A stretch of DNA of 64,000 nucleotides from an uncultured Candidatus Saccharibacteria bacterium (GTDB taxonomy: Bacteria; Patescibacteriota; Saccharimonadia; CAILAD01; JADZBC01), in the NCBI GenBank assembly GCA_964436255.1, contig CAYTBW010000005.1, positions 6,374 to 70,373 on the forward strand. Direction: 5' to 3'. Both the position numbers and the translations under genes were made by a program. Below the pieces are notes generated by a model. It worked only from the letters and a program-made list of their open reading frames with translations, searched no databases and was not told where the DNA came from. Positions within the stretch are counted from its first letter, which is position 1; each line of letters opens with the position of its first letter. Shown in pieces: positions 1 through 16,447 of this stretch.

Positions 1-41
1 TTATTCTTACATCAAACGTTTTAAGATGTAAGGAGTAAGCA

Positions 42-1130
42 GTGAGTACAGCAACAGTAGAAAAATCAGTAACGAAGAACGTAAAGGCGGAGAATACAAA
101 AGCAGTGAAAGACGATAAGACAGAATCAAAAGCACCAGGCGGGGAAAAGGCAGCACGATTGCGGGCAGTTGATCTCGCAGTAGAGCAAATCGAGCGTCAG
201 TTTGGTAAAGGCTCAATCATGAAGCTTGGTGAAGGCGCCAAGGTGCATGTAAAGACCTTCTCGACTGGGAGTTTGTCACTCGATATCGCGCTGGGTGGAG
301 GCATCCCCGAAGGCCGCATCGTAGAGATCTATGGCCCAGAATCAAGTGGTAAAACTACGCTGGCATTACACGCTGTAGCAGAGATTCAAAAGAAGGGCGG
401 CACAGCTGCATTCATAGACGCCGAGCATGCCTTGGACCCAGAGTATGCTGGCAAGATCGGAGTAAACCTAGACAATCTCCTAATCTCGCAGCCAGATAAC
501 GGCGAGCAAGCATTGGAGATATGTGAGACACTAGTACGCTCTAGTGCGGTTGATTTGGTGATCGTAGACTCTGTAGCAGCGTTGGTACCTCGTGCCGAGA
601 TCGAAGGCGACATGGGTGACGCGCAGATGGGCTTACAAGCTCGATTAATGAGCCAGGCCATGCGTAAGCTCACCGGTGTGATTAGTAAGTCCAATACTAC
701 GGTCATCTTTATTAATCAGCTACGCATGAAGATTGGTGTCATGTTTGGCAACCCAGAAGTCACTGCCGGCGGAAATGCTCTGAAGTACTACGCATCGGTA
801 CGACTCGACATCCGACGTAGCGAGCAGCTCAAAGACGGCGATACTCCGATTGGAAACCATGTAAAGGTGAAGGTTGTGAAGAACAAGATTGCCGCGCCGT
901 TCAAGGTCGCTGAGTTCGACATCATGTATAACGAAGGGATCTCTAAGGCAGGGGATATGATTGATCTAGCTGTTAAGCACAACATGGTGGTTAAATCAGG
1001 AGCTTGGTATTCGTACAAGGACGAGAAGATTGGCCAGGGTCGTGAAGCGGCAAAGACCTTCCTAAAGGAAAACCCTAAGGCCATGGAAGAGATCGAAAAG
1101 GCCATTCGTGCAGAACTAGACATTAAGTAG
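42..1130 (+). CDS. recA: Recombinase RecA
   Basis: 362 aa; Walker [13 protein letters not shown], conserved RecA core ([37 protein letters not shown]); recX immediately downstream. Confidence 0.97.
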
Positions 1131-1144
1131 CCTCCACTTGGCTT

Positions 1145-1795
1145 ATGCCGCAAATTACCAATATATCGTCACAAAGAAGAAACGCCGATATTTATAACAT
1201 AGAGGTTGATGGTAAGTTTATATGTGGCTTGGGTGCCCTCGAAGTAAGCAGCAGAGGCCTGCGAGTAGGGCAGAATCTAGAGAAAGCAGAGATTGAACAG
1301 CTTATTTTGTCCTCTCTGGGAGCCAAGGCCTATAACGCGGCGTTGAGATATCTGAGCTATCGGCCGCGTAGCGAATTTGAGGTCAAAGACTACCTGGCTC
1401 GTAAGGATTATAGTCCCGAGATGATCACTCTAACTTTAGACAGGCTTACAGGGGCACGGTTTGTCAACGACGAAGACTTCGCTCGGTCTTGGGTTCGTAG
1501 CAGACAATCTGCTAAGCCAAAATCAAAACGTGCCCTAAGTGCTGAGCTTGCTAAAAAGCGAGTACCACGCGACATCGTAGACATGGTGTTAGCCGACGTG
1601 GAGGACGAGGACGAATTATCTTCTCTAAAAGAAGTCGCCCTTAAGAAGACCAAGCTAGCCAGGTACTCTAGCGACAAACAAAAACTGACCCAGTATCTTC
1701 TAGGTCAGGGCTACAAATATAGTGATGTACGGGCTGTGCTCGAGGAGTTAGCGACTCATGACGACAAAACGGATTACAGTTCCAATAACAGCTAG
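1145..1795 (+). CDS. recX: Regulatory protein RecX-like
   Basis: 216 aa directly after recA; RecX-like helical repeat region (ALRYLSYRPRSEFEVKDYLARK...); synteny with recA. Confidence 0.65.
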   Translation: MPQITNISSQRRNADIYNIEVDGKFICGLGALEVSSRGLRVGQNLEKAEIEQLILSSLGAKAYNAALRYLSYRPRSEFEVKDYLARKDYSPEMITLTLDRLTGARFVNDEDFARSWVRSRQSAKPKSKRALSAELAKKRVPRDIVDMVLADVEDEDELSSLKEVALKKTKLARYSSDKQKLTQYLLGQGYKYSDVRAVLEELATHDDKTDYSSNNS

Positions 1796-1850
1796 CCACA
1801 TAAGAGCTACAATCAAATCACCCTCCTCACTTAGATGTAATTAGTATAGG

Positions 1851-2408
1851 CTAGGCTATGTTCTTGGGCAAGGGGATCGTAAGCGGTTTGCGTACGCGGT
1901 TGCGTAGGTCTCGTACTGTGATCTTTTTACTTTCGGCGCTAACAACATCTACAAGGTCAATGATCTGCTCTTGCTGCAGGGGGTTTCCGAAGAGCCCCGC
2001 AGTTACATATAGCTTGGCTATTTGCCAACTTGTGTCGTCAATTGCATAGTTTGTGACCTTGCCAAGTTTTTTACGACTTTCTGTTACAACGCTGCATCCG
2101 ATGGGATCGAAGTTCTGTGCTATGAGTTCCTGGTGTCGCAGCAGGTCGTCTTTGTCAGATAGCTTTTCTTCGGCATCGATGATCACGCGCTGTCCACTCA
2201 CGAAGCGAATGTCGCCCGGCATTAGGTATGACCGGCCTTGAAGTTCATCTATCGCCAGTAAGCTAATGGTGAGCTTACTGGGGTCGACTACAAAGCTGGC
2301 GATTCTGCCACATGGCATGCCAGACTGTACACTGGCTACGGTGGAGCCGATAAACTGTTCGCGAAATATAAGCATGAGCTTATTATAGCGCGCCGACAGG
2401 TTGACCAA
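1851..2408 (-). CDS. Hypothetical protein (possible PRC-barrel-like fold)
   Basis: 185-aa ORF, clean intergenic spacing; no confident family match from sequence alone. Confidence 0.4.
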   Translation of the reverse strand: MVNLSARYNKLMLIFREQFIGSTVASVQSGMPCGRIASFVVDPSKLTISLLAIDELQGRSYLMPGDIRFVSGQRVIIDAEEKLSDKDDLLRHQELIAQNFDPIGCSVVTESRKKLGKVTNYAIDDTSWQIAKLYVTAGLFGNPLQQEQIIDLVDVVSAESKKITVRDLRNRVRKPLTIPLPKNIA

Positions 2409-2528
2409 AAGCCCTTTATAAGGTAAAATAACTCGGTATTAACTAACCTTTTTGTTGTAGCGCACCTAGAGCAAAGACTACAGCAAAGGTCGACAAAGTC
2501 GGCCAAGCCAAAGAAAGGATTACAGCAT

Positions 2529-2909
2529 ATGCGTAATTATGAGATTGCTATCGTACTGCACCCAGATCTCGAAATCGATATCGAAAGTGCAACAAGCAAA
2601 GTAGAGAAGATCATTGAACTTGCCAAAGGCAAGATTGTCAAAAAAGATAACTGGGGTAAGCGCAAACTTGCCTATAAGATCAAGAAGCAAGATTGGGGTA
2701 TCTACGTGTTCTACAACGTACAGCTAGATCCGTCAGCCGTAGCCCAGATCGAAGGAACACTTCGCATTACTGAAGAAGTCATGCGCTATCTCATCGTTTC
2801 GTTAGAAAACACACGACTTGTGAGCAAAACTACTCAGCAGAACACAGAGCCAGAGCAAAAAGACGGCGAAAAAGAGAGTAAAGTAGAAAGTACTAAGGAG
2901 GACAAGTAA
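2529..2909 (+). CDS. rpsF: 30S ribosomal protein S6
   Basis: 126 aa; MRNYEIAIVLHPDLE N-terminus typical of S6; rpsF-ssb-rpsR synteny. Confidence 0.9.
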   Translation: MRNYEIAIVLHPDLEIDIESATSKVEKIIELAKGKIVKKDNWGKRKLAYKIKKQDWGIYVFYNVQLDPSAVAQIEGTLRITEEVMRYLIVSLENTRLVSKTTQQNTEPEQKDGEKESKVESTKEDK

Positions 2910-3376
2910 TGGCACAGGGATTCAACCAGGCAATCGTAATGGGCAACCTAACTCGTGACCCAGAGCTCCGAACAACGCCGAGCGGACAGTCAGTAGCAGG
3001 CTTTGCAGTGGCTACTAACCGTAACTGGACCGATCCATCGGGTGAGAAGAAAGAAGCAGTGGAGTACCACGATATTGTAGCTTGGGGAAAGCTCGGCGAG
3101 CTCGCCAGTAACTACCTTTCTAAAGGCCGCAAAGTACTCGTAACTGGTCGTTTGCAGACACGCTCTTGGGAAACTGATGGTGTAAAGCGCCAAAAGACCG
3201 AGATCGTAGCAACCGACATCAACTTCCTAGACCGAGCTGGCGACGGTGGTGGTGAATATACCCCTGCAGCGAACCAGGGCCCAACTGAAACTAAAAAGCC
3301 TGCCAAGAAAAGCGATGACGTGATCATCGAAGACATGGGCGAAGGCGAAATTAACCTAGACGACATACCATTCTAA
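2909..3376 (+). CDS. ssb: Single-stranded DNA-binding protein
   Basis: 155 aa; OB-fold SSB motifs ([21 protein letters not shown]...[11 protein letters not shown]), acidic C-terminal tail ending DDIPF. Confidence 0.95.
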
Positions 3377-3383
3377 GGAGAAT

Positions 3384-3599
3384 ATGATGGCAGAATACCG
3401 AAAGCAAAACCGATTCTACTCTGAAAAGATTAGTTTCATTGATTACAAAGACGTTAAGCTCTTGCAGAGATACCTAGGCCCAACCGGCAAGATCGAATCT
3501 CGCAAACGCACCGGAGCATCTATGAAGCACCAACGCATGTTGGCCACCGCACTCAAGCGCGCACGCCACATTGGCTTGCTTCCATACGTAGTACGCTAG
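3384..3599 (+). CDS. rpsR: 30S ribosomal protein S18
   Basis: 71 aa; basic protein with S18-like core ([22 protein letters not shown]...[10 protein letters not shown]). Confidence 0.9.
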
Positions 3600-3608
3600 G
3601 CTTAGCGC

Positions 3609-4169
3609 ATGTACGGAATCACCGATCTACGTAAAGACACGCTAATAGATATTGACGGTACGCCATACCGCGTAACGGAGTATTCACATACCCAGATGGG
3701 TCGTGGCGGAGCAACCGTGAAGGTAAAGATTAAGAACTTACTGGACGGTAGTGTACTAGAAAAGGCCTTCAAAACTAACGAGAAGATATCTCCAGCTAGC
3801 ATTGATCGTAGCCAACTCCAGTTCCTGTACGCCAATGGCAAGGACCTGGCATTTATGGACATGGCGAGCTTTGACCAGTACGAAGTACCAGCTAGTGTGG
3901 ACGATGCAGTGCTCAAATATTTCCCGGAAGGGGCAGAAATCACTGGTCTCATTTATAACGGCCAAGTTATTGGCTTTGATTTGCCCAAGAACACAGTAAT
4001 AAAAGTTACCGAAACACCAGGTGGGGCTAAGGGCAACACCAGTAGTGGCGGCACTAAGCCCGCTACGCTCGAAACAGGCATCGAGGTGCAAGTGCCAATG
4101 TTCATTAAGGTTGGTGATGGAGTGAAAGTTGATACTCGCACTGGGCAATATCTAGAACGCGCAAAGTAA
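3609..4169 (+). CDS. efp: Elongation factor P
   Basis: 186 aa; EF-P KOW/OB domains (GRGGATVKVKIKNLLDGSVLEKAFK); followed by a hairpin+T6 terminator. Confidence 0.9.
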   Translation: MYGITDLRKDTLIDIDGTPYRVTEYSHTQMGRGGATVKVKIKNLLDGSVLEKAFKTNEKISPASIDRSQLQFLYANGKDLAFMDMASFDQYEVPASVDDAVLKYFPEGAEITGLIYNGQVIGFDLPKNTVIKVTETPGGAKGNTSSGGTKPATLETGIEVQVPMFIKVGDGVKVDTRTGQYLERAK

Positions 4170-4177
4170 TACATCTT

Positions 4178-4203
4178 AAAAGGGACGAACACGTTCCTTT
4201 TTT
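4178..4203 (+). terminator. Rho-independent terminator after efp
   Basis: aaaaGGGACGaacaCGTTCCtttttt: 6-bp stem (one G-U), 4-nt loop, T6 tract. Confidence 0.6.
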
Positions 4204-4217
4204 GCTATGCTATAAGT

Positions 4218-4682
4218 ATGTATCGATCGCCCGCACACTTTTCTAGGAGTCAAGCCGAGCGTAATAATCAAATGTTGTCATGGGCTCGTGATGATAAATC
4301 CTTCTTTGCTTCAGGCGCCTGTCATATTCTGGCTTACACGTTTTTCTCGCTGCATCCAGATAAAGAACTTGAGATCGTTTTTCTGAGGCCAGCTGGTACG
4401 GCGAGTGGTGGCACTATTGGCTGCCATGCCTACGTTCGCCAAGGATCTTGGGCGTTTGATTTCCAGGGCTGGACTTTAGAATCGGAATTATTATCAGTTA
4501 CGAGACAGGATTGGCAGGATAGAGTTCCGGGTTGGGATTACACTACAGAGGTAGTAACTGATGACCTTGAGACTTTCTGTAGTAAGACAAACCATAGGCC
4601 GCCGGCCTACTTTGCCTTTTTACCATGGGCGAGAACTTACAATTATATTGCCCAGTTTGAAGACGGGCCGCCTAGCTACTGA
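4218..4682 (+). CDS. Hypothetical protein
   Basis: 154-aa ORF convergent with ychF; no recognisable domain. Confidence 0.4.
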   Translation: MYRSPAHFSRSQAERNNQMLSWARDDKSFFASGACHILAYTFFSLHPDKELEIVFLRPAGTASGGTIGCHAYVRQGSWAFDFQGWTLESELLSVTRQDWQDRVPGWDYTTEVVTDDLETFCSKTNHRPPAYFAFLPWARTYNYIAQFEDGPPSY

Positions 4683-5745
4683 ATCGAAACACGACAACGT
4701 CGCCGTCATGCATTACGTAGTCTTTGCCCTCTAGGCGAGTCTTGCCGACAGCCTTAGCTTCGGCAAATCCGCCTGCAGCAATGAGGTCATCGTAGCCAGT
4801 TACCTCGGCTTTAATAAATCCTTTTTCAAAATCAGTATGGATTACTCCAGCGGCTTGCGGGGCAGTGGCACCAACCGGAATAGTCCAGGCACGCGTTTCC
4901 TTGGGCCCGGTAGTAAGGTAGGTTTGCAAGTCGAGGATACGGAAGCTAATTTGCACCAGGCTATCAAGGCCACTTTGTTCTTGGCCAAGGCTTTGGAGTA
5001 GCTCGCTAGCTTCCTCGTCGGGTAGGTCTTGAAGCTCTGCTTCGATCTTGGCGCACAGGAACACAACGGGGGAGTTGCCAGCTAGTTTGGCTAGCTCGGC
5101 CTGTTTAGCCTTGTCGGCCAGCCCCGCTTCATCGAGGTTAAACACATAAATGAATGGCTTGGCAGTTAGGAGCTGCAGGTCGGCGATCGATTCTGGCAGC
5201 TCGCTATACGTGTGGCTAATCAACTCTCCATTATCGAGACTCGCGTTGATTTCTTGCAATTCGGCGACTATCGCACCAGCCTTAGGGTTGGTCTTTGCTT
5301 CGCGCTGTGTGGCTTCAATGCGCTTTTGCACCGTGGTAATGTCGGCTAAACACAACTCAGTTTTAATAGCATCAATGTCGTCCTGCGGATCAACTTTACC
5401 TTCTACGTGAATTACGTTGTCGTCATCAAATGCCCGCACGACTTGTATAATCGCATTTGTTTCACGAATGTTCGCGAGGAACTTGTTACCAAGTCCTGCT
5501 CCTTCAGACGCCCCACGCACAATGCCGGCGATATCCACGAATGTTACAGTTGCGGGTAGGGTGTCGATGGAGCCGGATATGCCAGCGAGCTTTGCCAGGC
5601 GCTTGTCAGGCACTGCTACAATACCAACGTTTGGTTCGATTGTGGCGAACGGATAGTTGGCTGCTAAAATGTTGTTTTTGGTTAGGGCATTAAATAGCGT
5701 GGACTTACCGACGTTTGGTAGACCCACGATGCCGAGGGATAGCAT
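4672..5745 (-). CDS. ychF: Ribosome-binding ATPase YchF (Obg-family GTPase)
   Basis: 357 aa; N-terminal P-loop GIVGLPNVGKSTLFNALT, G-domain + C-terminal TGS-like region. Confidence 0.9.
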   Translation of the reverse strand: MLSLGIVGLPNVGKSTLFNALTKNNILAANYPFATIEPNVGIVAVPDKRLAKLAGISGSIDTLPATVTFVDIAGIVRGASEGAGLGNKFLANIRETNAIIQVVRAFDDDNVIHVEGKVDPQDDIDAIKTELCLADITTVQKRIEATQREAKTNPKAGAIVAELQEINASLDNGELISHTYSELPESIADLQLLTAKPFIYVFNLDEAGLADKAKQAELAKLAGNSPVVFLCAKIEAELQDLPDEEASELLQSLGQEQSGLDSLVQISFRILDLQTYLTTGPKETRAWTIPVGATAPQAAGVIHTDFEKGFIKAEVTGYDDLIAAGGFAEAKAVGKTRLEGKDYVMHDGDVVVFRFSS

Positions 5746-7300
5746 CTAAACCCACCTTTTCACTAATAGGTACTTTGATTGATCCATAAATTCTTACTTC
5801 CATCTTGTTAATTATGACCTTGTCGATGAGATTCCTCACTATTGGCAGTTTATCCGCTCCATCAAGCTGTGATATATGCTTGATTGCCGCCTCAGATAGC
5901 TCATCACAGTTTATATCAGATTGGTGCAGCTCATCAACTCTAGTCTCATTTTTTTTGCCGAGTTCTAATCGCAAACTCTTTATCTCATTTAGCTGTGAGA
6001 TGAGTTCGTGGTCTGTTATTCGGCCGGATCTATGGCGCTCATAACAATCAAGTTCCCTAGAGTCCAATTCGGCTCTAGCCCTACTATTATTCGCATTAGG
6101 CTTGGGCGCTCTGACCGTTGGCCTATTCTTGAGCCACTCCGATGCTAGTCCTGCGACGTATTCGTGATTAAAAAGCTTCTGAATCTCTCTCCACACTAGC
6201 TCGTCAATCATGGAGACTTTTTGCCCTCGCTCGGCACAAGTGGCGGGGCGAGGGAAGGAGTGCATCTTTTCATTGCACCTGTAATAAGAGAATCCATTTC
6301 CGGCAGTATCGCCCCTTCTAGTGTGTCCGCATGAGCAGTAGGTGAGTCCGCGCAATAAGTACTCGCGCTTAGTGTTCTTACGGCTGAACTTCTTGTTCTC
6401 TTCAAGGATGTCTTGAACCCTGTAAAAAATTTCATCGTCTAATATCTTTGGAATCTCGATTGAAATCCATTCGGACTCAGGTCTCGTTCGCCGGCTATTC
6501 TTCTTAATCCTTTTGTACGTCGTGTCTGCCCCATATTTAACGTCACCCACAACAGACTCCCTTTTATTGTATGCGTGCTGGCCAATATAGCTCTTGTTTC
6601 GAACTAGCCTCCTGATTGTGCTTTGCGCCCACGTCTCACTCATTCGCTTAGGAGGAGCGATTTTTTCTTGATCGAGTTTTCGTACTACGTCGTTGAGTGA
6701 GAGGTGATCTCTGACTATCCATGAAAAGATGTCACGTACAATTTTAGCCTCCCCCTCGTTAACCTGGAAGAACCCATTTTCTTTATTGCCTGATGTCCTT
6801 GAAATAGGGATATAGTCGTACCCGTACGGGGCATTGTATCCAAGTAGCTCCCCCCGCTTTACTTTTGATAGTTTCCCAAGTCTGAATCTCTCAGTAATCT
6901 TAGTGCGTTCATACTCTTGGAATAGCCCTAGAAAACTTTGTGTCATCTTCTCCTCGGGGGAGTTGCTTGTGCCATCTTTTAGGCTCGTAAACTCTATTCC
7001 TAGCTCTCCAAGTTCGCTGATAATGATTTCTTGGTGCACGAAGATTCTGGACAACCTACCTCTGTCATAGACATATACGGAATCAAATTTTTTAGATCTT
7101 GCATCCTGTCTGAGTCTATCGAGGCCGGGCCGTTCTAGTAGGGTACCGGTCCAGCCATCATCGCAGTAAATATTATCCTCGAGTAAAGCGAGGCCATCAC
7201 TTGAAATTCGCTTCATTATCTCTTCAAGTTGGACCTGGATGGTCTCGTCCTGCTCTTGCTTGGCAGTACTGACCCGGGCGTATAGGGCAGCTCTATTCAT
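5705..7300 (-). CDS. Large serine recombinase (phage-type integrase)
   Basis: 531 aa; resolvase catalytic N-domain (ALYARVSTAKQ active-site Ser), recombinase domain, Cys-rich zinc ribbon (CSCGH...YYRC), C-terminal coiled coil; 3' end overlaps ychF start by 41 nt. Confidence 0.9.
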   Translation of the reverse strand: MNRAALYARVSTAKQEQDETIQVQLEEIMKRISSDGLALLEDNIYCDDGWTGTLLERPGLDRLRQDARSKKFDSVYVYDRGRLSRIFVHQEIIISELGELGIEFTSLKDGTSNSPEEKMTQSFLGLFQEYERTKITERFRLGKLSKVKRGELLGYNAPYGYDYIPISRTSGNKENGFFQVNEGEAKIVRDIFSWIVRDHLSLNDVVRKLDQEKIAPPKRMSETWAQSTIRRLVRNKSYIGQHAYNKRESVVGDVKYGADTTYKRIKKNSRRTRPESEWISIEIPKILDDEIFYRVQDILEENKKFSRKNTKREYLLRGLTYCSCGHTRRGDTAGNGFSYYRCNEKMHSFPRPATCAERGQKVSMIDELVWREIQKLFNHEYVAGLASEWLKNRPTVRAPKPNANNSRARAELDSRELDCYERHRSGRITDHELISQLNEIKSLRLELGKKNETRVDELHQSDINCDELSEAAIKHISQLDGADKLPIVRNLIDKVIINKMEVRIYGSIKVPISEKVGLDAIPRHRGSTKRR

Positions 7301-7502
7301 TTTCTATCGGTTGAACCTTAATCGTCGAGTTTTCGCCCAGGTATGTCTGGAGATCATCGTGGCTGATTCTATAATTTCTACCGACTTTGAGGGCCTTAAG
7401 TCGCTTAGCTTTAATTAAATCAAGTACGGTCTGCCAGTGCACTTTCATGAGCCCGGCGACTTCTGCAGTAGTGTAATATTGTGGGATGCGAGTTCGTCTC
7501 AT
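7293..7502 (-). CDS. Excisionase-family HTH DNA-binding protein
   Basis: 69 aa; helix-turn-helix of excisionase/MerR type (YYTTAEVAGLMKVHWQTVLDLIKAKRLKALKVGRNYRI); overlaps recombinase start. Confidence 0.75.
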   Translation of the reverse strand: MRRTRIPQYYTTAEVAGLMKVHWQTVLDLIKAKRLKALKVGRNYRISHDDLQTYLGENSTIKVQPIENE

Positions 7503-7658
7503 AATTTAGAACTAAGTAAAACCTAGTATTACCTCCTAATAATATGGTTATGCTACTTTGAAGTCAAGTTCATATATATCTTGCAGAATATCTTATTTAG
7601 TTCCGCATCGAGCAGAGCTTTTGATGGCTCTGCTTCGACGGAAACGATAGGCGTCTTG

Positions 7659-7826
7659 CTAGTCATTCTGGTTTGAGGTGAAGACATAGCCATGTACTCT
7701 CATATACTCATTCATTACCATTGTGACTAGCTCGCGCATAGAAATGTCTAGATCTATAGCCATATGCTTTATAGCTCTGTGCTCTTGTTCGGACACTCTT
7801 ATTGGCTTGCTTTTGATGTTATACAT
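7659..7826 (-). CDS. Ribbon-helix-helix (CopG/MetJ-like) protein
   Basis: 55-aa ORF not in supplied track; strong RBS GGAGTAAGGGAGA-ATG; RHH signature KPIRVSEQEHRAIKHMAIDLDISMRELV; hairpin terminator downstream (7600-7640). Confidence 0.5.
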   Translation of the reverse strand: MYNIKSKPIRVSEQEHRAIKHMAIDLDISMRELVTMVMNEYMRVHGYVFTSNQND

Positions 7827-8203
7827 TCTCCCTTACTCCTTGTTAATTTGTTTACAGTAATAACGCCAGGGGGATAGCCCTCCCTCGTACTCTGGTTCTG
7901 AAGTGGTGGGGCCATCTCCAGGAATGCTGTCCTGGTCATTTGTCCCACTTCGTCACCGTCATAGTCGGTCGGCCAGCAAATCCTAGATTTCTCTACCTCT
8001 TGCTGGTAAGGCCCTAAGTGCCTTTGCACTCATTAAGGAGTTTGTATATATACAGTCTGTTTCGTTGGTATTAAATTCACACAATATTTTTAGGACTAAA
8101 TAAAAACTAGTGAAACGAGCGAAGAACTGTCACTATATATACAAATTTTTATGACGCAAGGTGGTTGATTTTAAAAACTTATGACTTAGAGTAATATGTA
8201 TTA

Positions 8204-9433
8204 ATGAGTGAAGTAGTAAAGAAGGATCGACATATCAATAAATGGGGCACTAAGCGTATAGTAATTCTCGCCGCCATTTCAGGCATTGTAATTACTCTTC
8301 TGGGTTATCTCCTGACTGCGTATTACCAAAAATGGCCACCATTCAAACCCGAAATAGCACGCTATGTTGTCGTGAAGTCAGCAGGGCTAGAATCCAACAA
8401 TATTAAGTCCTTATATCGGGACTATGGTGGGGCAGTTCTATACGCTATAGCGGATACGTCATTGTATAAGAGTAGCGATGAGGGCCTTACATGGAGGAAC
8501 ATCTCATCGAAAATTGAGTCTCCTGAGGAACAATATGCAAGTAAATTAGTAGTTACCCCAGATGCTATATTCGTGCTCAATGGCACCAGAGTTTATTACA
8601 GTAAAGATAAGGGGGAAAGCTGGAAGCCAGCCTCCCCAAATAACATTTATGTAAAGAATTTTGCCGCCAGTCCTGCTCACCTAGCTCTTCAATACTCCGA
8701 GAGCGTAATCCGTGTGATAAGCACAGTTGATGTGATTGATTATTCGACAGATTCGGATATGGCGTCCGTCTGGCAGGATTATTCAAAGGTGATAAGTACA
8801 CCAGAATCAGTATATACGTGTGAGCCTTTTGATGATCCAGTTAACTGCCCATCTGACAATCTAGTCTCGTCCAATCAAAGCGTCCTGTATTTAACAGATG
8901 ACAATTCACTATACAGGCTGTCGCAAGGCCTAGACAAGAGCTCTGAGGAGCTTAAGCTCAAAGACCAGATAACTTGGGAGCAGATCAAAGGCTTTTATGA
9001 ATCGGGCAAGAGCGTAGGGGCGACTGGCCGACTACTAAAGGACCCTTTTGTCTTTACTGCACGAAAGATTACCTCATCCGATCTAAGCAAATATCAACCC
9101 GAAGAGCTAATGATGCTCCAAGGCGGCTCGGCATGGAAGTCCCTGGGCTTTTACCCAGAAGGATGTGATGATAAGGCAGTGAGAATCGCTTACCGAGCCT
9201 ATTGTTTTGAAACTTTAACAGATGAGATACTCATTAGGACTTTGTCTGCAAGCACTAAGGGTGGCAAGGCCAACCCTGTCGCCAGGGTAGAAAAAGGGAG
9301 TCTCTCTAACGACCCTGTAGCGGTTATGGCGCTCGGCACAGGAGAACCAGTCAGCGCCTTACCCAAAATGGTCTGGGCAAGCAAAGACCAGGGTCTATTT
9401 GTTTTGAGCCCTGTAGAACAGGCGTCAAAGTAG
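8204..9433 (+). CDS. Membrane-anchored BNR/Asp-box repeat protein
   Basis: 409 aa; N-terminal TM (IVILAAISGIVITLLGYLL); Asp-box motifs SSDEGLTWRNI, SKDKGESWKP. Confidence 0.6.
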   Translation: MSEVVKKDRHINKWGTKRIVILAAISGIVITLLGYLLTAYYQKWPPFKPEIARYVVVKSAGLESNNIKSLYRDYGGAVLYAIADTSLYKSSDEGLTWRNISSKIESPEEQYASKLVVTPDAIFVLNGTRVYYSKDKGESWKPASPNNIYVKNFAASPAHLALQYSESVIRVISTVDVIDYSTDSDMASVWQDYSKVISTPESVYTCEPFDDPVNCPSDNLVSSNQSVLYLTDDNSLYRLSQGLDKSSEELKLKDQITWEQIKGFYESGKSVGATGRLLKDPFVFTARKITSSDLSKYQPEELMMLQGGSAWKSLGFYPEGCDDKAVRIAYRAYCFETLTDEILIRTLSASTKGGKANPVARVEKGSLSNDPVAVMALGTGEPVSALPKMVWASKDQGLFVLSPVEQASK

Positions 9434-9651
9434 GCAGACTACTTTGAGCGTACCCCCATCAATAAATTCTATAAGCTGTAAAGTGTCATCTAATTTCGTT
9501 TTTTCGTCCGTCTGGGGTGTTTGTACCTTTTCGGAATTCAAACGATTTTAAAGGCCTTGTTCTACCTGTAAAGAATTCTTAGAATCGATTTCTATTAGTT
9601 CTTGTATGCCTTCATAGATATTGCTAATTCTGTGATAGTATATGCCTAACT

Positions 9652-10566
9652 ATGAAGACTAGACCAGCAAGCAGAAGATGGTACTCTTACGTTGGTAGGA
9701 TTCTGCTTGGAGTTGTTCTATCACTACTGCTTGTTTTTGTCTGCGCACGAGCGACTGAACTCATTGGAGGATTTAGCTCCGTTGGCGGAGAAGTGATGTC
9801 AAAAGAGCAAGAGTCCCAGTATTTATTCATTTTGGTCACCTTATATGGCCTTATCACTGCAGCATTTCTATTAGTTGCATTCATAAAAAGGCATTTTCGC
9901 TTAACCTCCGTAGTTGTCGCCATGACTTGGCTGGGTGGGCTAATTCTTACTGGCATCGTCATGGTGTTCCAGACTTCTGAGCCATACCGATATAGCGCAA
10001 TAACTCAAGCAAAACAGTGCACAGCAATAGTACTAACGGACCAAGGGCACGGCAGCGGTTTCTCAGTTAAGCCGGGGTACTTGTTGACCAACTACCATGT
10101 CGTACAGGGTTCTACAAACTTAAAAGTTTATGCCAATCAAGAATTACCAGCGTCAGTAGTCGCATATTCTGAGGCCGAAGACTTAGCGCTACTCAAGATG
10201 TCTGAGGAAATACCGACATGCGCATTGGCTGATTCTAGTACTTTTAAATTGGCTGAAGAGCTATATATTGTTGGGTGGCCGAACAGCCCCTATGGGGAAT
10301 CTACGGTAACTAAAGGGATTTACTCTCGTATGATTGACGAACAGCAGGCTAGTAATGAGCTTGGATTCGGGTATGTAAAGCTAATTCAGACAGACGCAAG
10401 CATTAACTCAGGAAACTCTGGAGGTCCCCTAGTCAACTCCAGGGGCGTAGTGGGGATGAATACAGGAAAGCTCGTAAGCCAAGATGAAAGTGATTCTGTC
10501 GAAGGTATTGGTTATGCTATAAGCGCTGAAAACATCCGAGCCTTCATCGGGAAAAATATGCCCTAG
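9652..10566 (+). CDS. Membrane-anchored trypsin-like serine protease (S1C/HtrA-like catalytic domain)
   Basis: 304 aa; three N-terminal TM helices then GSGFSV...TNYHVV (His), DLALLK (Asp), GNSGGPLVN (Ser) triad. Confidence 0.8.
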   Translation: MKTRPASRRWYSYVGRILLGVVLSLLLVFVCARATELIGGFSSVGGEVMSKEQESQYLFILVTLYGLITAAFLLVAFIKRHFRLTSVVVAMTWLGGLILTGIVMVFQTSEPYRYSAITQAKQCTAIVLTDQGHGSGFSVKPGYLLTNYHVVQGSTNLKVYANQELPASVVAYSEAEDLALLKMSEEIPTCALADSSTFKLAEELYIVGWPNSPYGESTVTKGIYSRMIDEQQASNELGFGYVKLIQTDASINSGNSGGPLVNSRGVVGMNTGKLVSQDESDSVEGIGYAISAENIRAFIGKNMP

Positions 10567-10730
10567 AGGGCTAAATAGTTAGCTCCTCGAAACTTGTAGC
10601 CAAATTCTTTGCGGTATGCCTGCTCTAGGTCCGATGGATCTGCTATTTGGGTAAATCTTCCACACATACGATGATTATTCCACCAAGATAAACCATCGTT
10701 TAGCCATCAGCGATCTGATAATATACCAAC

Positions 10731-11444
10731 ATGAAGCCCCATAAGAATATAGGCCTACACCCAGATAATGCAATCAAGATAGCACTAAAGCTATTCGACA
10801 ATAAGCAAACGGTTGAAGAAAAAATTAAGCTTCTATTAGATACCCGCCCAATTAGTAACTTGGCCTTTGTTGATACACCAAAAGACTTTGCAAGCGGTAA
10901 GACCATTGACATCGATACTGGCGAACTGCTTGGCATCGGTTGTGTCGCAACTTATTACAACTGGATGAGTAGAGAAGCTAACAGTGACAATTCGTATCAA
11001 GCAGTAGTTGGCATAGAGGATGTTGGGAAGAATCAAATCGAAAGCCAGCTTTCTGATGGAGCAATATACCACGACCAAACTAATCAGAAGATACTGGCTC
11101 AGCAGGTGATGACGCAAGGTTATCATCCCGACAAATGGATAACCAGCCAAGATGTAATCGACGCAGTGAAAAAGAAAACAATCATACGCAATAATTATCA
11201 TGAAAACTGCATATTGATTGTTAATGTATTCGGCGACAAAGTTAATGTAGATCGCAAGGAAATCTACGATGTGATAAGTAAGTTGCCTGAAAAGTATACT
11301 GACACTTATATGGTAGTTTATGGCTTGCCATCACTAAGCATGGCTCATGTAAGTTTCATTAGTGAAGCTGATGCCCGTGGCCTAGTTATCAAATTAGAAA
11401 GACACGAGTACGAAGATATTTGGCGTTTTAACAAAGTGAACTAA
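10731..11444 (+). CDS. Hypothetical protein
   Basis: 237-aa ORF, no recognisable domain. Confidence 0.45.
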   Translation: MKPHKNIGLHPDNAIKIALKLFDNKQTVEEKIKLLLDTRPISNLAFVDTPKDFASGKTIDIDTGELLGIGCVATYYNWMSREANSDNSYQAVVGIEDVGKNQIESQLSDGAIYHDQTNQKILAQQVMTQGYHPDKWITSQDVIDAVKKKTIIRNNYHENCILIVNVFGDKVNVDRKEIYDVISKLPEKYTDTYMVVYGLPSLSMAHVSFISEADARGLVIKLERHEYEDIWRFNKVN

Positions 11445-11459
11445 ATTCAGTTATGTGTA

Positions 11460-11718
11460 CCGCTGAATGCTTTGTTAACTCGCTCCGTGGGTGTAGATAC
11501 TACCTGGGTCAAGAAGGGTGAAAGCCCCTTTGTATGATGGGCGGATTGATAATAAAACCACCGGGTACCCTACGGCTTTAATGACACACTAAAGCTAAAA
11601 GGTATGTTTAATGTCCTCCCATGCCGAGGGATAGACTCATGCCTATAATTATACCAGGTTTAGCTTGAGATTGACGCCTGGCTGGACTATAGTAGTACCA
11701 TAAGCTTTTTATCTATAG
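11460..11718 (+). promoter_or_regulatory. Long structured 5' leader upstream of 1002-aa gene (possible cis-regulatory RNA)
   Basis: ~260-bp non-coding stretch with GC-rich helical segments (CCGTGGGTG...ACCCTACGG; GGGTGAAAGCCCC) unlike surrounding AT-rich intergenic DNA. Confidence 0.25.
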
Positions 11719-14700
11719 ATGAATGATATAACTCCACCAAAAAAGACTTTGAGTGAGGTAGTTGCTCAGGCCGACCAGGCCCCTGTTGCTTCTGCCAGCA
11801 ATGTTATGTCAAAACGCCGCCGGTGGCCGAGAGTTTTATTTGGTATAATTGGCCTAGCATTGGTCGTTGGTGGCTATATGGGGTGGCAGACTTGGAATAA
11901 TAGAAACTATCCACCAAAAGGTACGTACGCCATAGTTGCTTCGCAGTCAGAGAGTCAAAAGAATTTCGATGAGATTATGGCTGCATATATAAAGTTCGAC
12001 CAACAAAGTGCTGCTGGGAAAGACATTGACGCCAAGAAGGTTGAGCGCAGGGCCGCAGACGAGGTCGTGTTAAGGCTTGGCCTACAGGAAGAAGCGAGTA
12101 AAAGAAGTAAGCTTAACTGCACTCAGCAAAAAGTCGACGAGATTATGAAGGATCGCTATGTTGCCGCAGGCAGTAGAAGTGATTTTTACAGCCAACTGAA
12201 TGAGCAGTATGGCTGGACGGAGCAGGTAACAATGCACCAAGAATGCCTCGAGTATTACAAAGAACAGTTGAGTGACGAGTTAATATCGGGCCACGAATTA
12301 TTTGGGATATATGTACGCTGGGACATTGCTCTAGGTCAGCCAGATGATGTTAAGGCATCCGTGGAGCGCAAGGCTGTCGCTAAATTGACCAATGATTTCT
12401 TGCCGATGTTTGAGGCAGATAAGTCGGATCAAGATATCTCTGCCAAAGCAGATGTGAACGAGACAACAACTGATGAAGAATTTAATGCCAAGGTAGTGTC
12501 CATTGATGAGCCGCCAACAAGGATCATTAAGCTCGCGCGCTTCAATAGCGAAGTATATAAGACGTTCCAGCAGTACTCAGAAGGGGAGGACGAAACAGGC
12601 TACGTAGACGGTTTGGCGGAAGGCTCTCATACAAAGGTTTTCAAATCCAAAACAGGCTACTATGTGATCTATCGATCTACTAAGAAGTTCACTGGAATCT
12701 ATGAGTCGTATGACCAAATGTTAGGCAAGGTTGTGGAGTCTGCGAAGGTAAGTAAGTCTTACAGCCAGCTCCCACCAGCTGAAAAAACCGAACCAAAGCC
12801 GCAGGAGACAAGCCAAGGTCTATCCTGGGTCTCGAAGCTACTTGGAGGCGCCCTGCGTGCGATTACCCCTAGAGCTGAAGCGGCCACACCAAATAGCATT
12901 ACTTGCTATGGCGATTCGCACAAGCTACCGTTTAGTATAGAATATCGTGATGCAGCCACAAAAAGCATCATCCAGAGTAATACCGGGCAGATTAAGGTTA
13001 CAAGCACTGGTGATATTAGGACCCCGTGTAAGGATGAGCCAGCTGCTGGTACAAATGCCTTTGGAGTCAATATCGCGTACAGCGGCATCAACAACGGTCA
13101 GATCTCTTATACTACAGGGCTACACCCTAACCCTTGGAGCTTTGGCTTAACATGCTATACATCATGGCGTTTTAACTTTGGCGCACCGACTGGCTACGAA
13201 GAGCTTTCGAGTGCTGACTACACGAACAAGAATCGTTTCTACCTTAAGACCGAGTATGCTTCGAGCAACTACGCGGGCTATACCGCATCGAGCATTGCAG
13301 GGCAGTACCAGATTCCACAACAATATTATGCAAACATAGCCAATGGAGCCAAGGGCTTTACGATACGGGTTTACTTTACAAAAAAACCGCCACAGGAAGG
13401 ACCTAAGGGGGAAATAAAGTCATCTTCAAAATATAAAAAGACCAATGGAGAGTATACTACTGGTGACGCGTTTCCTAACGACTCTTTAACGGAAGATCAA
13501 AAGAAGAAGTTCTTTTGTCTGAAGGGACTAAAAGAGTTTACCCCCTCGGTAGATTATTCAACGAGATGCTCTGCAAATATAGTCGGTGGCCTAGCCCAGC
13601 CTAATAAGCTCTGGGGGGGGTCTCAGGCTGCAGATAAACTTGACGTAGGGGTTTATAGCGCAGGCATATACGGCGGCCTTACGGACTATTCGATCGCCAA
13701 GATAGAGGTCACATACCCAGCCCAGTGTCAGTCACATGCCGCCGGCAAGGAGACGTTTAGTTCCGTCGGTGCAGTTAAGGTTCGCGTATGTGAAGGCCAG
13801 ACTCCTACGGTAGTCTTTTACTTTGATCCACCGAGCGCTGCAGCCCGGTTTGGCCCATGGCTTAAGGCTCAAAGGGGCAATGTAATGTCACTTGGCAGCA
13901 TCGTAGGGCAAAGCAAAACCATTAATGGCGGAGCTGGGTCCGGCAATCAAGAGGCCGAATACTTAGTGATGGCTGTTAGCTCTACGAACTTCTGCAGTCC
14001 ATACAATCTTGGCAAAGTAACAGACACAGCTAGCTGTCGATATGATCTCGGCTATGAGTCGAATACTGATTTCGATGCGAATACCGATAAAGTTATTGCC
14101 GGCGTTGAAAAGATCTTTGAAGGAGGTGGGTATACGGGCTCGTGTTCTTCCGCAAGACCATACAAGGTCTTCATGGATATGAAGAGCACATTCCAGGCAA
14201 CTCAATCAAGTACTAATAGTGGCTTCGGGGGTACGCCCGACTGCCCTGTGATAGGCAAGGTAGACGCCACCTCATTTGCGGCCCAGCACTTCTTTACTCA
14301 GGACAGGGCAACTATTTATGTCGATCAGGACTTGACGATTACTGCGAATAATATAGTGCAGTTTAGTGGCGGGGGCTACGCTTCGGTTAATAAGATTCCG
14401 AATGTAGGATTGATCGTGAAGGGGAATGTGACGATAGCACCAGGTGTAACTCAATTGGATATGTCCATCTATGCAAGCGGGAAGATTAAGACATGCTCGA
14501 CTTATCCTTCTAGTGAGTGCAGGAATCAACTTAAAGTAAGGGGAATGCTGGCTGCAGGGAAGGGGTTTGAGTTCGGACGTAATGCGTATGGCTCATCAAC
14601 GCCCGCGGAACTAATAATCGGATCTGGGCTCGTCGAAGCTTTTCCGCCTCCTGGATTCCTTGATCTGTATGGCCAGAACGTGAAAGGGGTCAAGTACCTC

Positions 14701-14727
14701 ACCACCAAAGGGAGCCCACGTTTCTAG
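11719..14727 (+). CDS. Large membrane-anchored extracellular protein, function unknown
   Basis: 1002 aa; single TM near residue 40-58 (VLFGIIGLALVVGGYMGW); Gly/Ser/Thr-rich, beta-rich C-terminal region. Confidence 0.6.
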   Translation: MNDITPPKKTLSEVVAQADQAPVASASNVMSKRRRWPRVLFGIIGLALVVGGYMGWQTWNNRNYPPKGTYAIVASQSESQKNFDEIMAAYIKFDQQSAAGKDIDAKKVERRAADEVVLRLGLQEEASKRSKLNCTQQKVDEIMKDRYVAAGSRSDFYSQLNEQYGWTEQVTMHQECLEYYKEQLSDELISGHELFGIYVRWDIALGQPDDVKASVERKAVAKLTNDFLPMFEADKSDQDISAKADVNETTTDEEFNAKVVSIDEPPTRIIKLARFNSEVYKTFQQYSEGEDETGYVDGLAEGSHTKVFKSKTGYYVIYRSTKKFTGIYESYDQMLGKVVESAKVSKSYSQLPPAEKTEPKPQETSQGLSWVSKLLGGALRAITPRAEAATPNSITCYGDSHKLPFSIEYRDAATKSIIQSNTGQIKVTSTGDIRTPCKDEPAAGTNAFGVNIAYSGINNGQISYTTGLHPNPWSFGLTCYTSWRFNFGAPTGYEELSSADYTNKNRFYLKTEYASSNYAGYTASSIAGQYQIPQQYYANIANGAKGFTIRVYFTKKPPQEGPKGEIKSSSKYKKTNGEYTTGDAFPNDSLTEDQKKKFFCLKGLKEFTPSVDYSTRCSANIVGGLAQPNKLWGGSQAADKLDVGVYSAGIYGGLTDYSIAKIEVTYPAQCQSHAAGKETFSSVGAVKVRVCEGQTPTVVFYFDPPSAAARFGPWLKAQRGNVMSLGSIVGQSKTINGGAGSGNQEAEYLVMAVSSTNFCSPYNLGKVTDTASCRYDLGYESNTDFDANTDKVIAGVEKIFEGGGYTGSCSSARPYKVFMDMKSTFQATQSSTNSGFGGTPDCPVIGKVDATSFAAQHFFTQDRATIYVDQDLTITANNIVQFSGGGYASVNKIPNVGLIVKGNVTIAPGVTQLDMSIYASGKIKTCSTYPSSECRNQLKVRGMLAAGKGFEFGRNAYGSSTPAELIIGSGLVEAFPPPGFLDLYGQNVKGVKYLTTKGSPRF

Positions 14728-14796
14728 CCCAGGCAGTTGTAGGATTATCTAAAAACCACCTGTTGAGTTCATAGTACTTATGCTAATATAAGGTAT

Positions 14797-15837
14797 ATGA
14801 GTTTATTCACTGAAGAAGAGAATTTTTTTGGGCTAGACCTAGGAGCTAGCAGTATTAAGCTGGTTCAGCTCAAGCAGATGCATGGCAAGCCAAGCCTGCT
14901 TACCTATGGCGATATGGAATTATCACCAAACCTGTTGGCTAGCGATTCCCCTGTGGATCAGGATAAGCTGGCTGGTATGATCAAACAGCTAGTGGAAGAC
15001 GCGCGAGTTTCTACCAAGAACGTAGTCGCGGCCCTGCCGTCAAACTTCTCGTATGCCGCGGTAATAACTATGCCTAAACTTGGTCATGATGAGCTGGCGA
15101 ATGCCGTTCGATTCCAGGCAGACAAATACATTCCGATGGCAATTGACCAGGTTAAGCTTGATTGGGCAGTGCTTGGCCCTAAACCAGACAGCGAAGACGA
15201 GCTAGAGGTTTTATTGGTAGCGGCTCCGATTTCATTAGCCAACAAGTACCTGAATGTTATGCAGAAAGCTGGGCTAGAGCTTCTGGCCCTTGAGATCAAC
15301 CCGATCGCGCAGACGCGCTCTCTGCTTCCAACCGAACACGACCCACTAATGATTATTGATTTTGGCTCTGTAGCAACTGACATGGCAATTGTAACGGGTC
15401 AGGCACCACGCCTGATTCGTTCTGCAAATGTTGGTTCGCGAACCATGGTGCGGGTCTTGGCCCAGAACCTTAGTCTGGATGAGGAGCAAGCTGAGCAGTT
15501 CATGCGTAAATTCGGGCTTGTACACACCAAGCTGGACGGCCAGGTGTTTAACGCTCTAAAGCCTGCCGTGGACGGTGTGGTACAAGAGATTACCAAGTCG
15601 ATCAATTACTTTCATGAATCAAACCCAGACTTAAAAGTGTCAAAGCTCATCATTACTGGTGGAACGGCAGCACTTCCGGGCCTGCCCGCATACCTAGCTA
15701 ACACTACTGGGATCACAGTGGAAATCGGCAATCCCTGGAACAATATTAGTTATCCTGCCAACTTAGAATCTAAGCTGACGCCATTGTCGCTTACGTATGG
15801 TAGCGCCATTGGCCTGGCTATGAGGGGGATGGTATAG
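14797..15837 (+). CDS. pilM: Type IV pilus assembly protein PilM
   Basis: 346 aa; actin-like ATPase fold start (FFGLDLGASSIKLVQL); first gene of pilMNO-pilBTC cluster. Confidence 0.85.
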   Translation: MSLFTEEENFFGLDLGASSIKLVQLKQMHGKPSLLTYGDMELSPNLLASDSPVDQDKLAGMIKQLVEDARVSTKNVVAALPSNFSYAAVITMPKLGHDELANAVRFQADKYIPMAIDQVKLDWAVLGPKPDSEDELEVLLVAAPISLANKYLNVMQKAGLELLALEINPIAQTRSLLPTEHDPLMIIDFGSVATDMAIVTGQAPRLIRSANVGSRTMVRVLAQNLSLDEEQAEQFMRKFGLVHTKLDGQVFNALKPAVDGVVQEITKSINYFHESNPDLKVSKLIITGGTAALPGLPAYLANTTGITVEIGNPWNNISYPANLESKLTPLSLTYGSAIGLAMRGMV

Positions 15838-15838
15838 C

Positions 15839-16447
15839 ATGGCTGTGCTAATCAACTTATTGCCAGAGGCCAGACTGGCTAAGCTACGCGATATTAAGCG
15901 CAAGCGATTAGCTACTACCGTTATGATTGTGGTGTGCGTAATTATCCTGACAGTCATTGGCACGCTTTTAGTTCTCATGGCGTACAACGCAACCGTTTCT
16001 GCTGCCAATAAGGGGGAGATTAATACTCTAAATGAAGAGATTGCTAAGTCCAAGGATATGGAGCAGCAGACCGCAACCATCCAGGAGCACTTAGCTTCGT
16101 TCTATTCGCTCAACAGTAGCCGCCTGTACGCTAGCGAGATCTTCAGCAACTTTGGTAATACCATTCCTGCAGAGGTTACAGTGTCGAGCTTTGCATTGGC
16201 GGACGACTATACGGCAACGATTAGCGGTAGCACCTCGAGTATTAAACAAGTTAGTATATTCTCTAACGCCCTTGAGGAATATAACAAGAACTTTAAGATA
16301 CAGGAGAACCTGGATCGCAAGCAGCTCTTTAGTGACGTCAAAATAACTTCGGTTAGCAAGGACAACACAACTTCTAAAGTAACCTTTAGTATGACATTCA
16401 AGGTGGACCCTAGCTTATTCAAAACGAAAGGAGGCAAGAGCTCATGA
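15839..16447 (+). CDS. pilN: Type IV pilus assembly protein PilN
   Basis: 202 aa; INLLPEARLAKLRD + TM, typical PilN N-terminus; coupled to pilM. Confidence 0.7.
   Translation: MAVLINLLPEARLAKLRDIKRKRLATTVMIVVCVIILTVIGTLLVLMAYNATVSAANKGEINTLNEEIAKSKDMEQQTATIQEHLASFYSLNSSRLYASEIFSNFGNTIPAEVTVSSFALADDYTATISGSTSSIKQVSIFSNALEEYNKNFKIQENLDRKQLFSDVKITSVSKDNTTSKVTFSMTFKVDPSLFKTKGGKSS

Follow-up and report, generated by a model that had tools for sequence, protein, structure and literature searches.

How does the start codon of ychF, the gene of a conserved translation-associated GTPase, come to lie inside the reading frame of a recombinase? The question is raised by a 64,000-nt stretch of DNA (hereafter, the window) from an uncultured Candidatus Saccharibacteria bacterium (GTDB lineage Bacteria; Patescibacteriota; Saccharimonadia; CAILAD01; JADZBC01), which covers positions 6,374-70,373 of the forward strand of contig CAYTBW010000005.1 in assembly GCA_964436255.1. 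Coordinates are window positions throughout, and L-numbers (for example, L170) denote comparison loci from other contigs. On the minus strand, in order, lie ychF (4672..5745; 357 aa; Pfam MMR_HSR1 and YchF-GTPase_C) and open reading frames (ORFs) of 531 aa (5705..7300), 69 aa (7293..7502) and 55 aa (7659..7826); on the plus strand, ORFs of 409, 304 and 237 aa come next, and after them a 1002-aa ORF and pilM. As a preliminary description of this DNA had stated, the 531-aa recombinase overlaps the ychF start by 41 nt, with its stop codon (5707-5705) 41 nt downstream of the ychF ATG (5745-5743). We find that window positions 5729-11634 are very probably a 5.9-kb integrative mobile element, inserted by its own large serine recombinase (LSR) through recombination between an attachment site on the element (attP) and one in the host (attB) at the ychF P-loop.

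The limits of the element are set by a repeat. Searching the window for repeats, we obtained a single exact 14-nt direct repeat, whose plus-strand sequence is ATGCCGAGGGATAG and whose copies occupy 5729-5742 and 11621-11634; this core is present twice in the whole window, against 0.01 copies expected by chance. On the ychF strand it reads CTATCCCTCGGCAT and covers ychF codons 2-6. The two copies mark a ychF-proximal junction (5729..5742, minus strand) and a distal junction (11621..11634, minus strand), which enclose 5,878 bp of element-specific DNA (5743..11620), or 5,892 bp counting one core copy, and they replace the limits of 5705-11450 given in the preliminary description. From these junctions we reconstructed attB, as host-left joined to host-right, and attP, as element-left joined to element-right.

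Exact look-up of the window's proteins led to two loci, L170 and L169; ychF and the 1002-aa protein have relatives of at least 90% identity on shared contigs. In L170, a Joint Genome Institute (JGI) contig of 132,961 bp, the gene order is recA, recX, S6, SSB, S18, EF-P, a 154-aa gene and a 358-aa ychF, beyond which, with no gene between, come the divergent 1002-aa gene, pilM, pilN and pilO. The reconstructed attB (100 + 14 + 100 nt) is identical to L170 at 214/214 positions, and the core occurs only once in L170. Identity to this near-identical strain is 99.93% over window 1-5728 and 94.4% over 11635-22000, while a search of 5743-11620 against it gave no match. The window thus holds a precise, strain-specific 5,892-bp insertion at the ychF 5' end, as had been claimed for a serine-recombinase island, and the insertion is a recent one because the flank is 99.93% identical to the empty-site strain.

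Further uninterrupted ychF upstream regions, which the preliminary description had suggested looking for, agree with this result. L169 is a second empty site with the same neighbors as the window locus (a 1002-aa-like gene and pilMNO), and L007, a Saccharimonadia genome whose ychF is 67% identical, is a distant one, in which a 781-aa protein, the positional homologue of the 1002-aa one, is encoded divergently from ychF and ahead of pilMNO. In a scan of genome contigs with ychF, the closest species representatives were 62-67% identical, and most of the matches were from Actinomycetota. Metagenome and viral contig collections, when scanned with one degenerate pattern for attB, attP and both junctions, gave 0 matches, and the metagenome of L170 is apparently outside the collection. 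The 1002-aa gene, which had been offered as possible cargo, is host DNA outside the element because it adjoins ychF in the empty-site strains L170 and L169. Composition is likewise not uniform along the window: the G+C content of the element is 43.5% versus 50.9% for the rest, and no other 5.9-kb stretch falls below 47.8%, so the cargo DNA had rightly been called AT-richer. As a separate observation, the lower identity to L170 of the pilus/1002-aa flank (94.4%) than of the ychF-side flank (99.93%) points to a surface and pilus region that diverges faster or recombines.

By its domain content, the 531-aa protein is an LSR with the full domain set. It matches Resolvase (PF00239; E = 2e-27, residues 4-151), Recombinase (PF07508; E = 5e-21) and Zn_ribbon_recom (PF13408; E = 1e-5), along with a PHROG integrase family (E = 5e-83). 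The catalytic S11 and the R9, D79, R82 and R85 columns are invariant in homologue alignments A1 and A3, and the zinc-ribbon cysteines C322, C324, C342 and C355 are conserved in the alignment. PDB matches to the catalytic domain include TP901-1 and phiC31, and the AlphaFold model of homologue P0002 has long helices (361-492) between the zinc-ribbon strands.

The reconstructed attP junction of the window's element contains GGTGGGTTTAGATGCTATCCCTCGGCATGGGAGGACATTAAAC. Its left arm (5743..5774, minus strand, within the recombinase 3' end) and its right arm (11620-11589) are reverse-complementary at 18 of 32 positions, where we estimate about 8 by chance. Across the nine elements that we could delimit (the window's and eight relatives), attP dyad matches centered on a GG dinucleotide number 15-25 of 32 but only 5-12 of 32 in attB, and the cores common to attP and attB are 2-17 nt long. 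Since the attP dyad centre falls on GG, we propose this dinucleotide (5733-5732 in the proximal core and 11625-11624 in the distal one) as the putative crossover point, which would lie in the first glycine codon of the ychF P-loop motif GIVGLPNVGKS. Far junctions of the relatives were sought with a score that combines core identity with complementarity of the LSR-proximal and LSR-distal arms, and eight were convincing; an exact-repeat search had been mostly uninformative here, as cores can be 2-5 nt. Weaker far-junction candidates (L101, L107, L131, L142, L152, L153 and others) were dropped as chance.

The same arrangement is found well beyond the window. We assembled 79 metagenome loci in addition to 4 earlier ones, of which 75 have enough downstream sequence, and in 72 of these 75 ychF follows or overlaps the recombinase gene (all of the first three contexts examined overlap). 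In each of the 66 loci that were measured, the end of the LSR ORF lies 20-134 nt beyond the first P-loop glycine codon, and the frame is always the same. Because the ORF runs past this codon in the -1 frame, the protein acquires a basic tail, RHRRPTKRRQ…, which is present at the end of at least 105 of the 120 best homologues. Identity to the closest LSR homologues is 36-50%; these are from Patescibacteria, among them Microgenomates and the Roizman-, Shapiro- and Daviesbacteria groups. Recombinases from phage collections are 24-35% identical (the best, from Wolbachia phage WO, 32-35%), plasmid-borne LSRs are below 30%, and a search of IMG/VR viral contigs found no relatives of the recombinase. 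This is a large Patescibacteria recombinase clade that spans several lineages of the candidate phyla radiation (CPR) and has one ychF landing site; the relatives and attachment sites whose comparison had been proposed show the same ychF position in 72/75 loci, with attP and attB reconstructed in nine elements.

Several loci of the clade differ from this pattern. L145, L146 and L149 are the only ones with ample downstream sequence in which ychF does not follow the recombinase; L145 and L146 have attP-type extensions (described below) within long contigs, and L149, with a tail of another kind, may integrate at some other target. The recombinase of L132 is truncated. L167 (1650-4669) encodes a GC-rich recombinase relative in the attP-type configuration, together with a Rep_O-like initiator and an FtsK/TrwB-like ATPase, and is reminiscent of actinomycete integrative conjugative elements. 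The 90% identity cluster to which the database assigns the window's recombinase is represented by an unrelated, low-complexity peptide of 51 aa; because of this database artefact, the homology search gave no recombinase self-hit.

The junctions place attP inside the recombinase gene, so that integration evidently swaps a C-terminal extension for out-of-frame ychF codons. The last 7 codons and stop of the 531-aa ORF (5728-5705) come from host ychF, read in the -1 frame. What was cut off from the gene, its original 3' end, now stands at the opposite end of the element (11570..11620, minus strand, also the attP right arm); it has 16 codons, GRTLNIPFSFSVSLKP, followed by TAG (11572-11570), and is in frame with the recombinase body only in the circular attP form. 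In reconstructions of the attP-form ORF, the LSR frame runs on into the distal arm for 16-55 codons in 9/9 delimited elements, namely at 11570-11620 in the window and at the far junctions of L003, L114, L118, L135, L138, L141, L148 and L097; the extension has 16 codons in the window versus about 31-55 in the eight relatives. Two subfamilies can be told apart by their motifs, LPFELKL.MPP.D.GGRGYS.EY (A) and IP.FEF.F..IPK..KERLIIER..LG.I.HSK (B), and the window's IPFSFSVSLKP matches the family motif LPFELKL.MPP. Pairwise differences in the extension at codon positions 1/2/3 number 184/131/327 and 68/43/103 in the two subfamilies. As the differences are mostly at third positions, which conservation of a DNA site would not produce, the comparison argues that the conserved extension is under protein-level selection. 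In the window, no in-frame start codon precedes the severed extension, which we therefore read as untranslated.

Some homologues end differently. Fifteen lack a ychF-derived tail by pattern, several of them being variant ychF tails or truncated proteins, and five of the 15 end in LPFEL…MPP.D..GRGYS and have an attP-type junction at their loci. Folding of the extension is predicted as well: modelled with AlphaFold, an attP-form homologue has a disordered linker (512-533), a strand (535-542) and a helix (555-566), the last two with a predicted local distance difference test (pLDDT) score of 66-80. We considered whether attP-type junctions prove excised circles and rejected this, because the tandem array in L088 gives the same junction; L164-L167, when checked for circularity, had no terminal overlaps. 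In L088 (1-900, 10001-11722) and L089 (2546-3385), two recombinase genes stand in tandem upstream of one ychF, and the upstream recombinase gene of L088 has an in-frame stop, its ORF reading into the right arm of the downstream element. From these arrays, and from the stop in the upstream L088 copy, it follows that elements pile up at the ychF site and can decay there.

Integration also changes ychF. The gene is complete, with the canonical N-terminus MLSLGIVGLPNVGKS, and because the protein begins in this way its start cannot be moved downstream. The integrated form has 357 aa and starts MLSLGI; the native form, MSLSLGI, has 358 aa and is one residue longer. In a ychF cluster of at least 90% identity (8 members), the MLSLGI start is unique to the window's protein; among the other 7, three start MSLSLGI, three full-length proteins carry MSLSLGI after an upstream-called start, and a 142-aa member was not read. 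The native 5' end is found at the distal junction (11635..11653, minus strand), where ggTATAATtataggcATGAGT upstream of the core comprises a -10 box, a 7-nt spacer, ATG and a serine codon. This TATAAT (11653-11648), spacer and ATG (11640-11638) match the L170 empty site exactly. The orphaned start would encode MSLSLGI and now reads into element DNA as a 10-codon ORF, since the sequence downstream of the core is unrelated to ychF. The element DNA that now precedes the ychF body, aaaaggtgggtttagATG, lies within the LSR 3' end; the attP left arm supplies the new ATG (5745-5743), which has a purine-rich Shine-Dalgarno-like sequence, AAAAGGTGGG, at 5760-5751. Integration has stranded the native promoter and ATG 5.9 kb away, and the element provides a new ATG and upstream sequence, in line with the earlier proposal that element DNA supplies the ychF start region.

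The TAnAAT-N6-7-ATG layout recurs at the far junctions of most other delimited elements and in the empty sites L005 and L018. Native ychF (L005, L018, L170 and window 11638-11653) has a TAnAAT box 6-7 nt before the ATG and no Shine-Dalgarno sequence, which suggests that native ychF mRNA is leaderless in these Saccharibacteria-like genomes. In the integrated state, ychF is probably transcribed from the element as part of an operon with the HTH_17 and recombinase genes, and its translation would begin at the new start. Cotranscription with the LSR gene and the 69-aa gene (HTH_17, discussed below) is the simplest reading because a promoter belonging to ychF alone could fit only inside the LSR gene. 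A promoter-like TTGACT-17-TATTAT is present upstream of the HTH_17 gene at 7567-7539, in a scan that as a whole did not exceed chance.

The nine delimited elements are 5.9-10.9 kb in size, the window's being the smallest and its eight relatives 8.5-10.9 kb. No virion genes were detected among the ORFs scanned in the nine, nor did a PHROGs scan of seven ORFs of the window's element give a virion, packaging or lysis family, which bears out the preliminary view that phage structural genes are absent. At 5.9 kb and with such relatives, this is an integrative island rather than a prophage, as the preliminary description had thought possible. An AAA_25 RepA-like helicase is encoded in 4/9 elements, once together with a CHC2 primase finger, and the window's element has no replication module. 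Gene content beyond the recombinase region appears variable across the clade and often consists of defence genes. Cargo differs from relative to relative and includes an OLD-family nuclease, an Eco57I-like methylase, a reverse transcriptase, DNA methylases with ImmA and an HTH repressor, a KAP NTPase with a cytosine methylase, and Fic, Mrr and an S24 repressor. DNA polymerase B had no match among ten selected large unknown proteins scanned from the relatives, and about 76 actinobacterial ychF loci that we examined had no related recombinase upstream.

Taken together, these data lead us to the following model. The element's attP would recombine with the host attB under the action of its own LSR, with crossover at the GG of the first P-loop glycine codon of ychF. 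This would fuse the ychF body to the element's ATG within the recombinase 3' end and leave the native promoter and start at the far junction. In the circular form the recombinase frame would continue into the other end of the element, to be cut on integration, and the resulting C-terminus swap between free and integrated states may modulate the activity or directionality of the recombinase, with the HTH_17 protein acting as an excision factor or regulator. The window's copy may be a reduced, possibly immobile derivative because its extension is short and it has no replication module. We further suggest, as a tentative idea on which we would not insist, that this is a bacterial serine-recombinase counterpart of the archaeal "suicidal" integrases, in which the switch between isoforms serves as an inbuilt device for directionality or commitment and the element takes transcriptional control of ychF. 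The full-length enzyme, for example, could be integration-competent and the truncated enzyme inert, or excision-only together with the HTH_17 protein.

A number of observations weigh against this model. The circular or attP form of the window's element was not found in exact-pattern scans of metagenome and viral collections, and the attP-type junctions in L164-L167, L145 and L146 can also stem from tandem arrays, as in L088. Pfam and PHROG scans recognised no replication, transfer or packaging gene in the window's element, and its 16-residue extension ending at TAG suggests that this copy may no longer move and may be partly decayed. The purine-rich motif before ychF is an imperfect Shine-Dalgarno sequence that may be kept mainly as a recombinase binding site. 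A promoter and terminator scan was overall not above chance, so that transcription of ychF from the element is deduced from the arrangement of the genes. The HTH_17 protein is a positional candidate for a directionality factor, and the three cargo proteins are near-orphans to which searches assigned no functions.

Could the structure have arisen in some other way? That the repeat is fortuitous or the window a chimeric assembly has a negligible chance of being right. The assembly is of unknown quality and short repeats can arise by chance, but an exact 14-nt repeat is expected only 0.01 times, this one sits exactly at the ychF 5' duplication and the attP dyad centre, the same architecture is present in dozens of independent contigs, and the element's genes recur on independent contigs from other samples. 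Domestication is also very improbable: the recombinase would then be a switch by which the host regulates ychF, for example through reversible promoter replacement, and not a selfish integrase. Such a role would fit the conservation of the ychF association across a broad clade, the replacement of the ychF promoter and start, and the precedent of a pneumococcal defective prophage that is reported to control ychF expression (PMC8637289). However, the element is present or absent among near-identical strains, its cargo is variable, unrelated and often defensive, the G+C content of the element is foreign, tandem arrays occur, and the repeats are direct rather than inverted, so that the reaction is insertion and excision, not inversion.

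A less radical alternative, which we regard as unlikely, is that the locus is a decayed prophage or a fixed remnant island that came by another route, now immobile, with the recombinase-ychF overlap as a fossil. The missing AAA_25 helicase/primase module that some relatives have, the extension of 16 codons versus 31-55 in relatives, the failure to find the attP form of the window's element in scans, and the existence of decayed family members (the in-frame stop in L088 and the truncated recombinase of L132) would all be expected of a remnant. Against decay, both cores are perfect, the recombinase ORF is intact with its catalytic residues, and the 99.93% identity of the flank to an empty-site strain makes the event recent. 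No virion genes were found in the element and its eight delimited relatives are small too, at 8.5-10.9 kb, which is unlike the scattered decay of 40-kb prophages, and the family-wide purifying selection on the severed extension implies that the joined form is used. Finally, the element could be a phage satellite, similar to the phage-inducible chromosomal islands (PICIs), or a mobilised element whose transfer depends on a helper phage or conjugative system, with its size and defence cargo reflecting this lifestyle. We hold this to be unlikely as well, if slightly less so. Sizes of 6-11 kb and a layout of integrase, small DNA-binding proteins, primase/helicase and accessory or defence genes are as in satellites, and the weak NikA-like match of the 55-aa protein and the Rep_O and FtsK/TrwB-like ATPase of the relative L167 point the same way; but no capsid, terminase, relaxase or packaging-redirection gene was detected in scanned ORFs, recombinase relatives were absent from the IMG/VR search, and no helper is known. 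The satellite reading concerns the transfer step alone and is compatible with integration by the element's own LSR as we propose it.

How much of this is new? LSR integration into protein-coding genes is already well known, and a site-specific island is of an ordinary kind. Like the integrases of phiC31, Bxb1, A118/LI, TP901-1 and phage WO, the recombinase described here combines Resolvase and Recombinase domains with a zinc ribbon that has a long helical insert, uses an attP of ~50-60 bp with imperfect dyad arms and short attB/attP identity around a central dinucleotide, integrates into a protein-coding gene and has a small accessory gene beside int. It differs from them in that its carrier is 6-11 kb without virion genes, its attP lies within the recombinase ORF so that the C-terminus changes, and the accessory gene is HTH_17. 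To our knowledge, the characterised LSR directionality factors belong to other families than HTH_17. Another analogy for the altered C-terminus may be the integration-dependent immunity of mycobacteriophages, in which attP reportedly lies inside the repressor gene, as Broussard and colleagues are said to have described in 2013. There too, integration would alter the C-terminus of an element-encoded protein and so report the integration state; the protein cut is the repressor and the integrase is of the tyrosine type, whereas here the serine integrase itself is cut.

Elements at ychF have been seen elsewhere. LSR-bearing pipolins of Actinomycetota are reported to integrate at ychF (PMC11551731), a site that the passages concerned infer from gene context and give without junction sequences (PMC11551731). 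As described there, they share with our element the ychF target, an LSR and a defence-rich, non-viral integrative character, and Saccharibacteria ychF is 60-65% identical to actinobacterial ychF. Unlike pipolins, the window's element has no piPolB match, and the hosts are Patescibacteria. A pneumococcal defective prophage upstream of ychF is reported to control ychF expression (PMC8637289), and, as is probable in our case, a mobile element with an int gene beside ychF takes over its expression; there, attB lies in the intergenic region that separates ychF from a DUF951 gene, the element is what remains of a prophage, and the ychF coding sequence is not rebuilt (PMC8637289). Self-disrupting integrases were known only in Archaea according to a 2021 review (PMC8371274). 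SSV-type "suicidal" integrases likewise have the site within their own gene, with an enzyme that differs between free and integrated states, but these are tyrosine recombinases of archaeal viruses and plasmids in which the split separates large parts of the enzyme (PMC8371274). In the present case the enzyme is a bacterial serine recombinase that loses only a 16-55-residue extension, keeps its catalytic and DNA-binding domains intact and gains a short ychF tail. Literature searches found no description of this Patescibacteria recombinase clade and no report of an LSR gene split by integration. What appears to be new, then, is that Patescibacteria have a clade of such small elements, that the site lies exactly at the first P-loop glycine codon, that the element rebuilds the ychF start, and that a serine recombinase gene is partitioned on integration.

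These findings have several implications. Few descriptions of mobile elements in CPR bacteria appear to exist. Given the size of the clade (at least 105 of the 120 best homologues), its spread over several CPR lineages, its one landing site and its defence cargo, these elements are a candidate major route of gene flow in reduced genomes. Genetic tools for Saccharibacteria and other CPR bacteria are scarce, and triplets of recombinase, attP and attB that can be read from sequence, with an attB that is near-universal P-loop coding sequence, could become integration tools for them. The replacement of the promoter and start of a conserved translation-associated GTPase illustrates how elements may avoid, or exploit, damage to host genes. 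If the C-terminus swap is functional, it would provide a serine integrase with a novel means of sensing its integration state and controlling it, and would be a counter-example to the confinement of self-disrupting integrases to Archaea (PMC8371274).

Apart from the recombinase, the element encodes three small minus-strand ORFs. The 69-aa gene (7293..7502), whose end overlaps the recombinase start by 8 nt, matches Pfam HTH_17 (E = 7e-12) as well as PHROG excisionase and DNA-binding families, as expected from its earlier designation as an excisionase-type HTH gene. A homologue occupies the same position in 6/9 delimited elements and also in L002 and L003, which makes the protein a candidate directionality factor for excision, or a regulator. 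The 55-aa ORF (7659..7826) that had been called a ribbon-helix-helix (RHH) gene is present, but the RHH call is weak: a sub-threshold NikA-like match (E = 0.15) and weak PHROG matches make an RHH protein plausible. The 76-aa ORF (7799..8029) matched nothing in Pfam, PHROG and further family searches, and it is called as a gene on an independent contig, L168. Family searches found no relaxase and no type IV secretion or coupling protein in the window's element, the NikA-like match at E = 0.15 aside, and no ORF matched the DNA polymerase B family. Helper-dependent packaging genes of the PICI type were likewise not detected in the scanned ORFs, many of which are of unknown family.

The cargo comprises three genes on the plus strand. 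The 409-aa protein (8204..9433) was taken for a BNR-repeat membrane protein; it does have an N-terminal hydrophobic segment, but its Sortilin/BNR-like Pfam matches are sub-threshold (25.6 bits versus a cut-off of 33). Only two weak relatives were found among 5.8 billion proteins, and an identical copy is present on L168. The 304-aa protein (9652..10566) carries a Trypsin_2 domain (E = 2e-24) behind hydrophobic N-terminal segments read from its sequence, which fits the earlier description of a membrane-anchored trypsin-like protease. Its protease domain resembles the protease effector domains of defence proteins, among them RT-protease, LmuA and Avs1b, and a near-identical copy is found on a JGI contig. 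The notion of envelope-protein cargo is a deduction from these hydrophobic segments. The 237-aa protein (10731..11444) belongs to a rare uncharacterised family with 30 relatives among 1.84 billion representatives, in which E65, D97, E104, D109, Q124, Q129 and K149 are invariant. Its AlphaFold model (pLDDT 91) has no significant fold match in PDB and BFVD, and a nuclease role is only a guess.

Two minor features complete the locus. An Rfam search of 4000-15000 gave no match; the divergent intergenic region before the cargo genes has a TATATA-rich 21-nt inverted repeat, 81% complementary, at 8041-8061 and 8125-8145, which could be an operator or an origin. On the host side, a 154-aa ORF of unknown family (4218-4682, plus strand) lies convergent to ychF, with an 11-nt overlap at the 3' end of that gene, a position that is conserved in L170.

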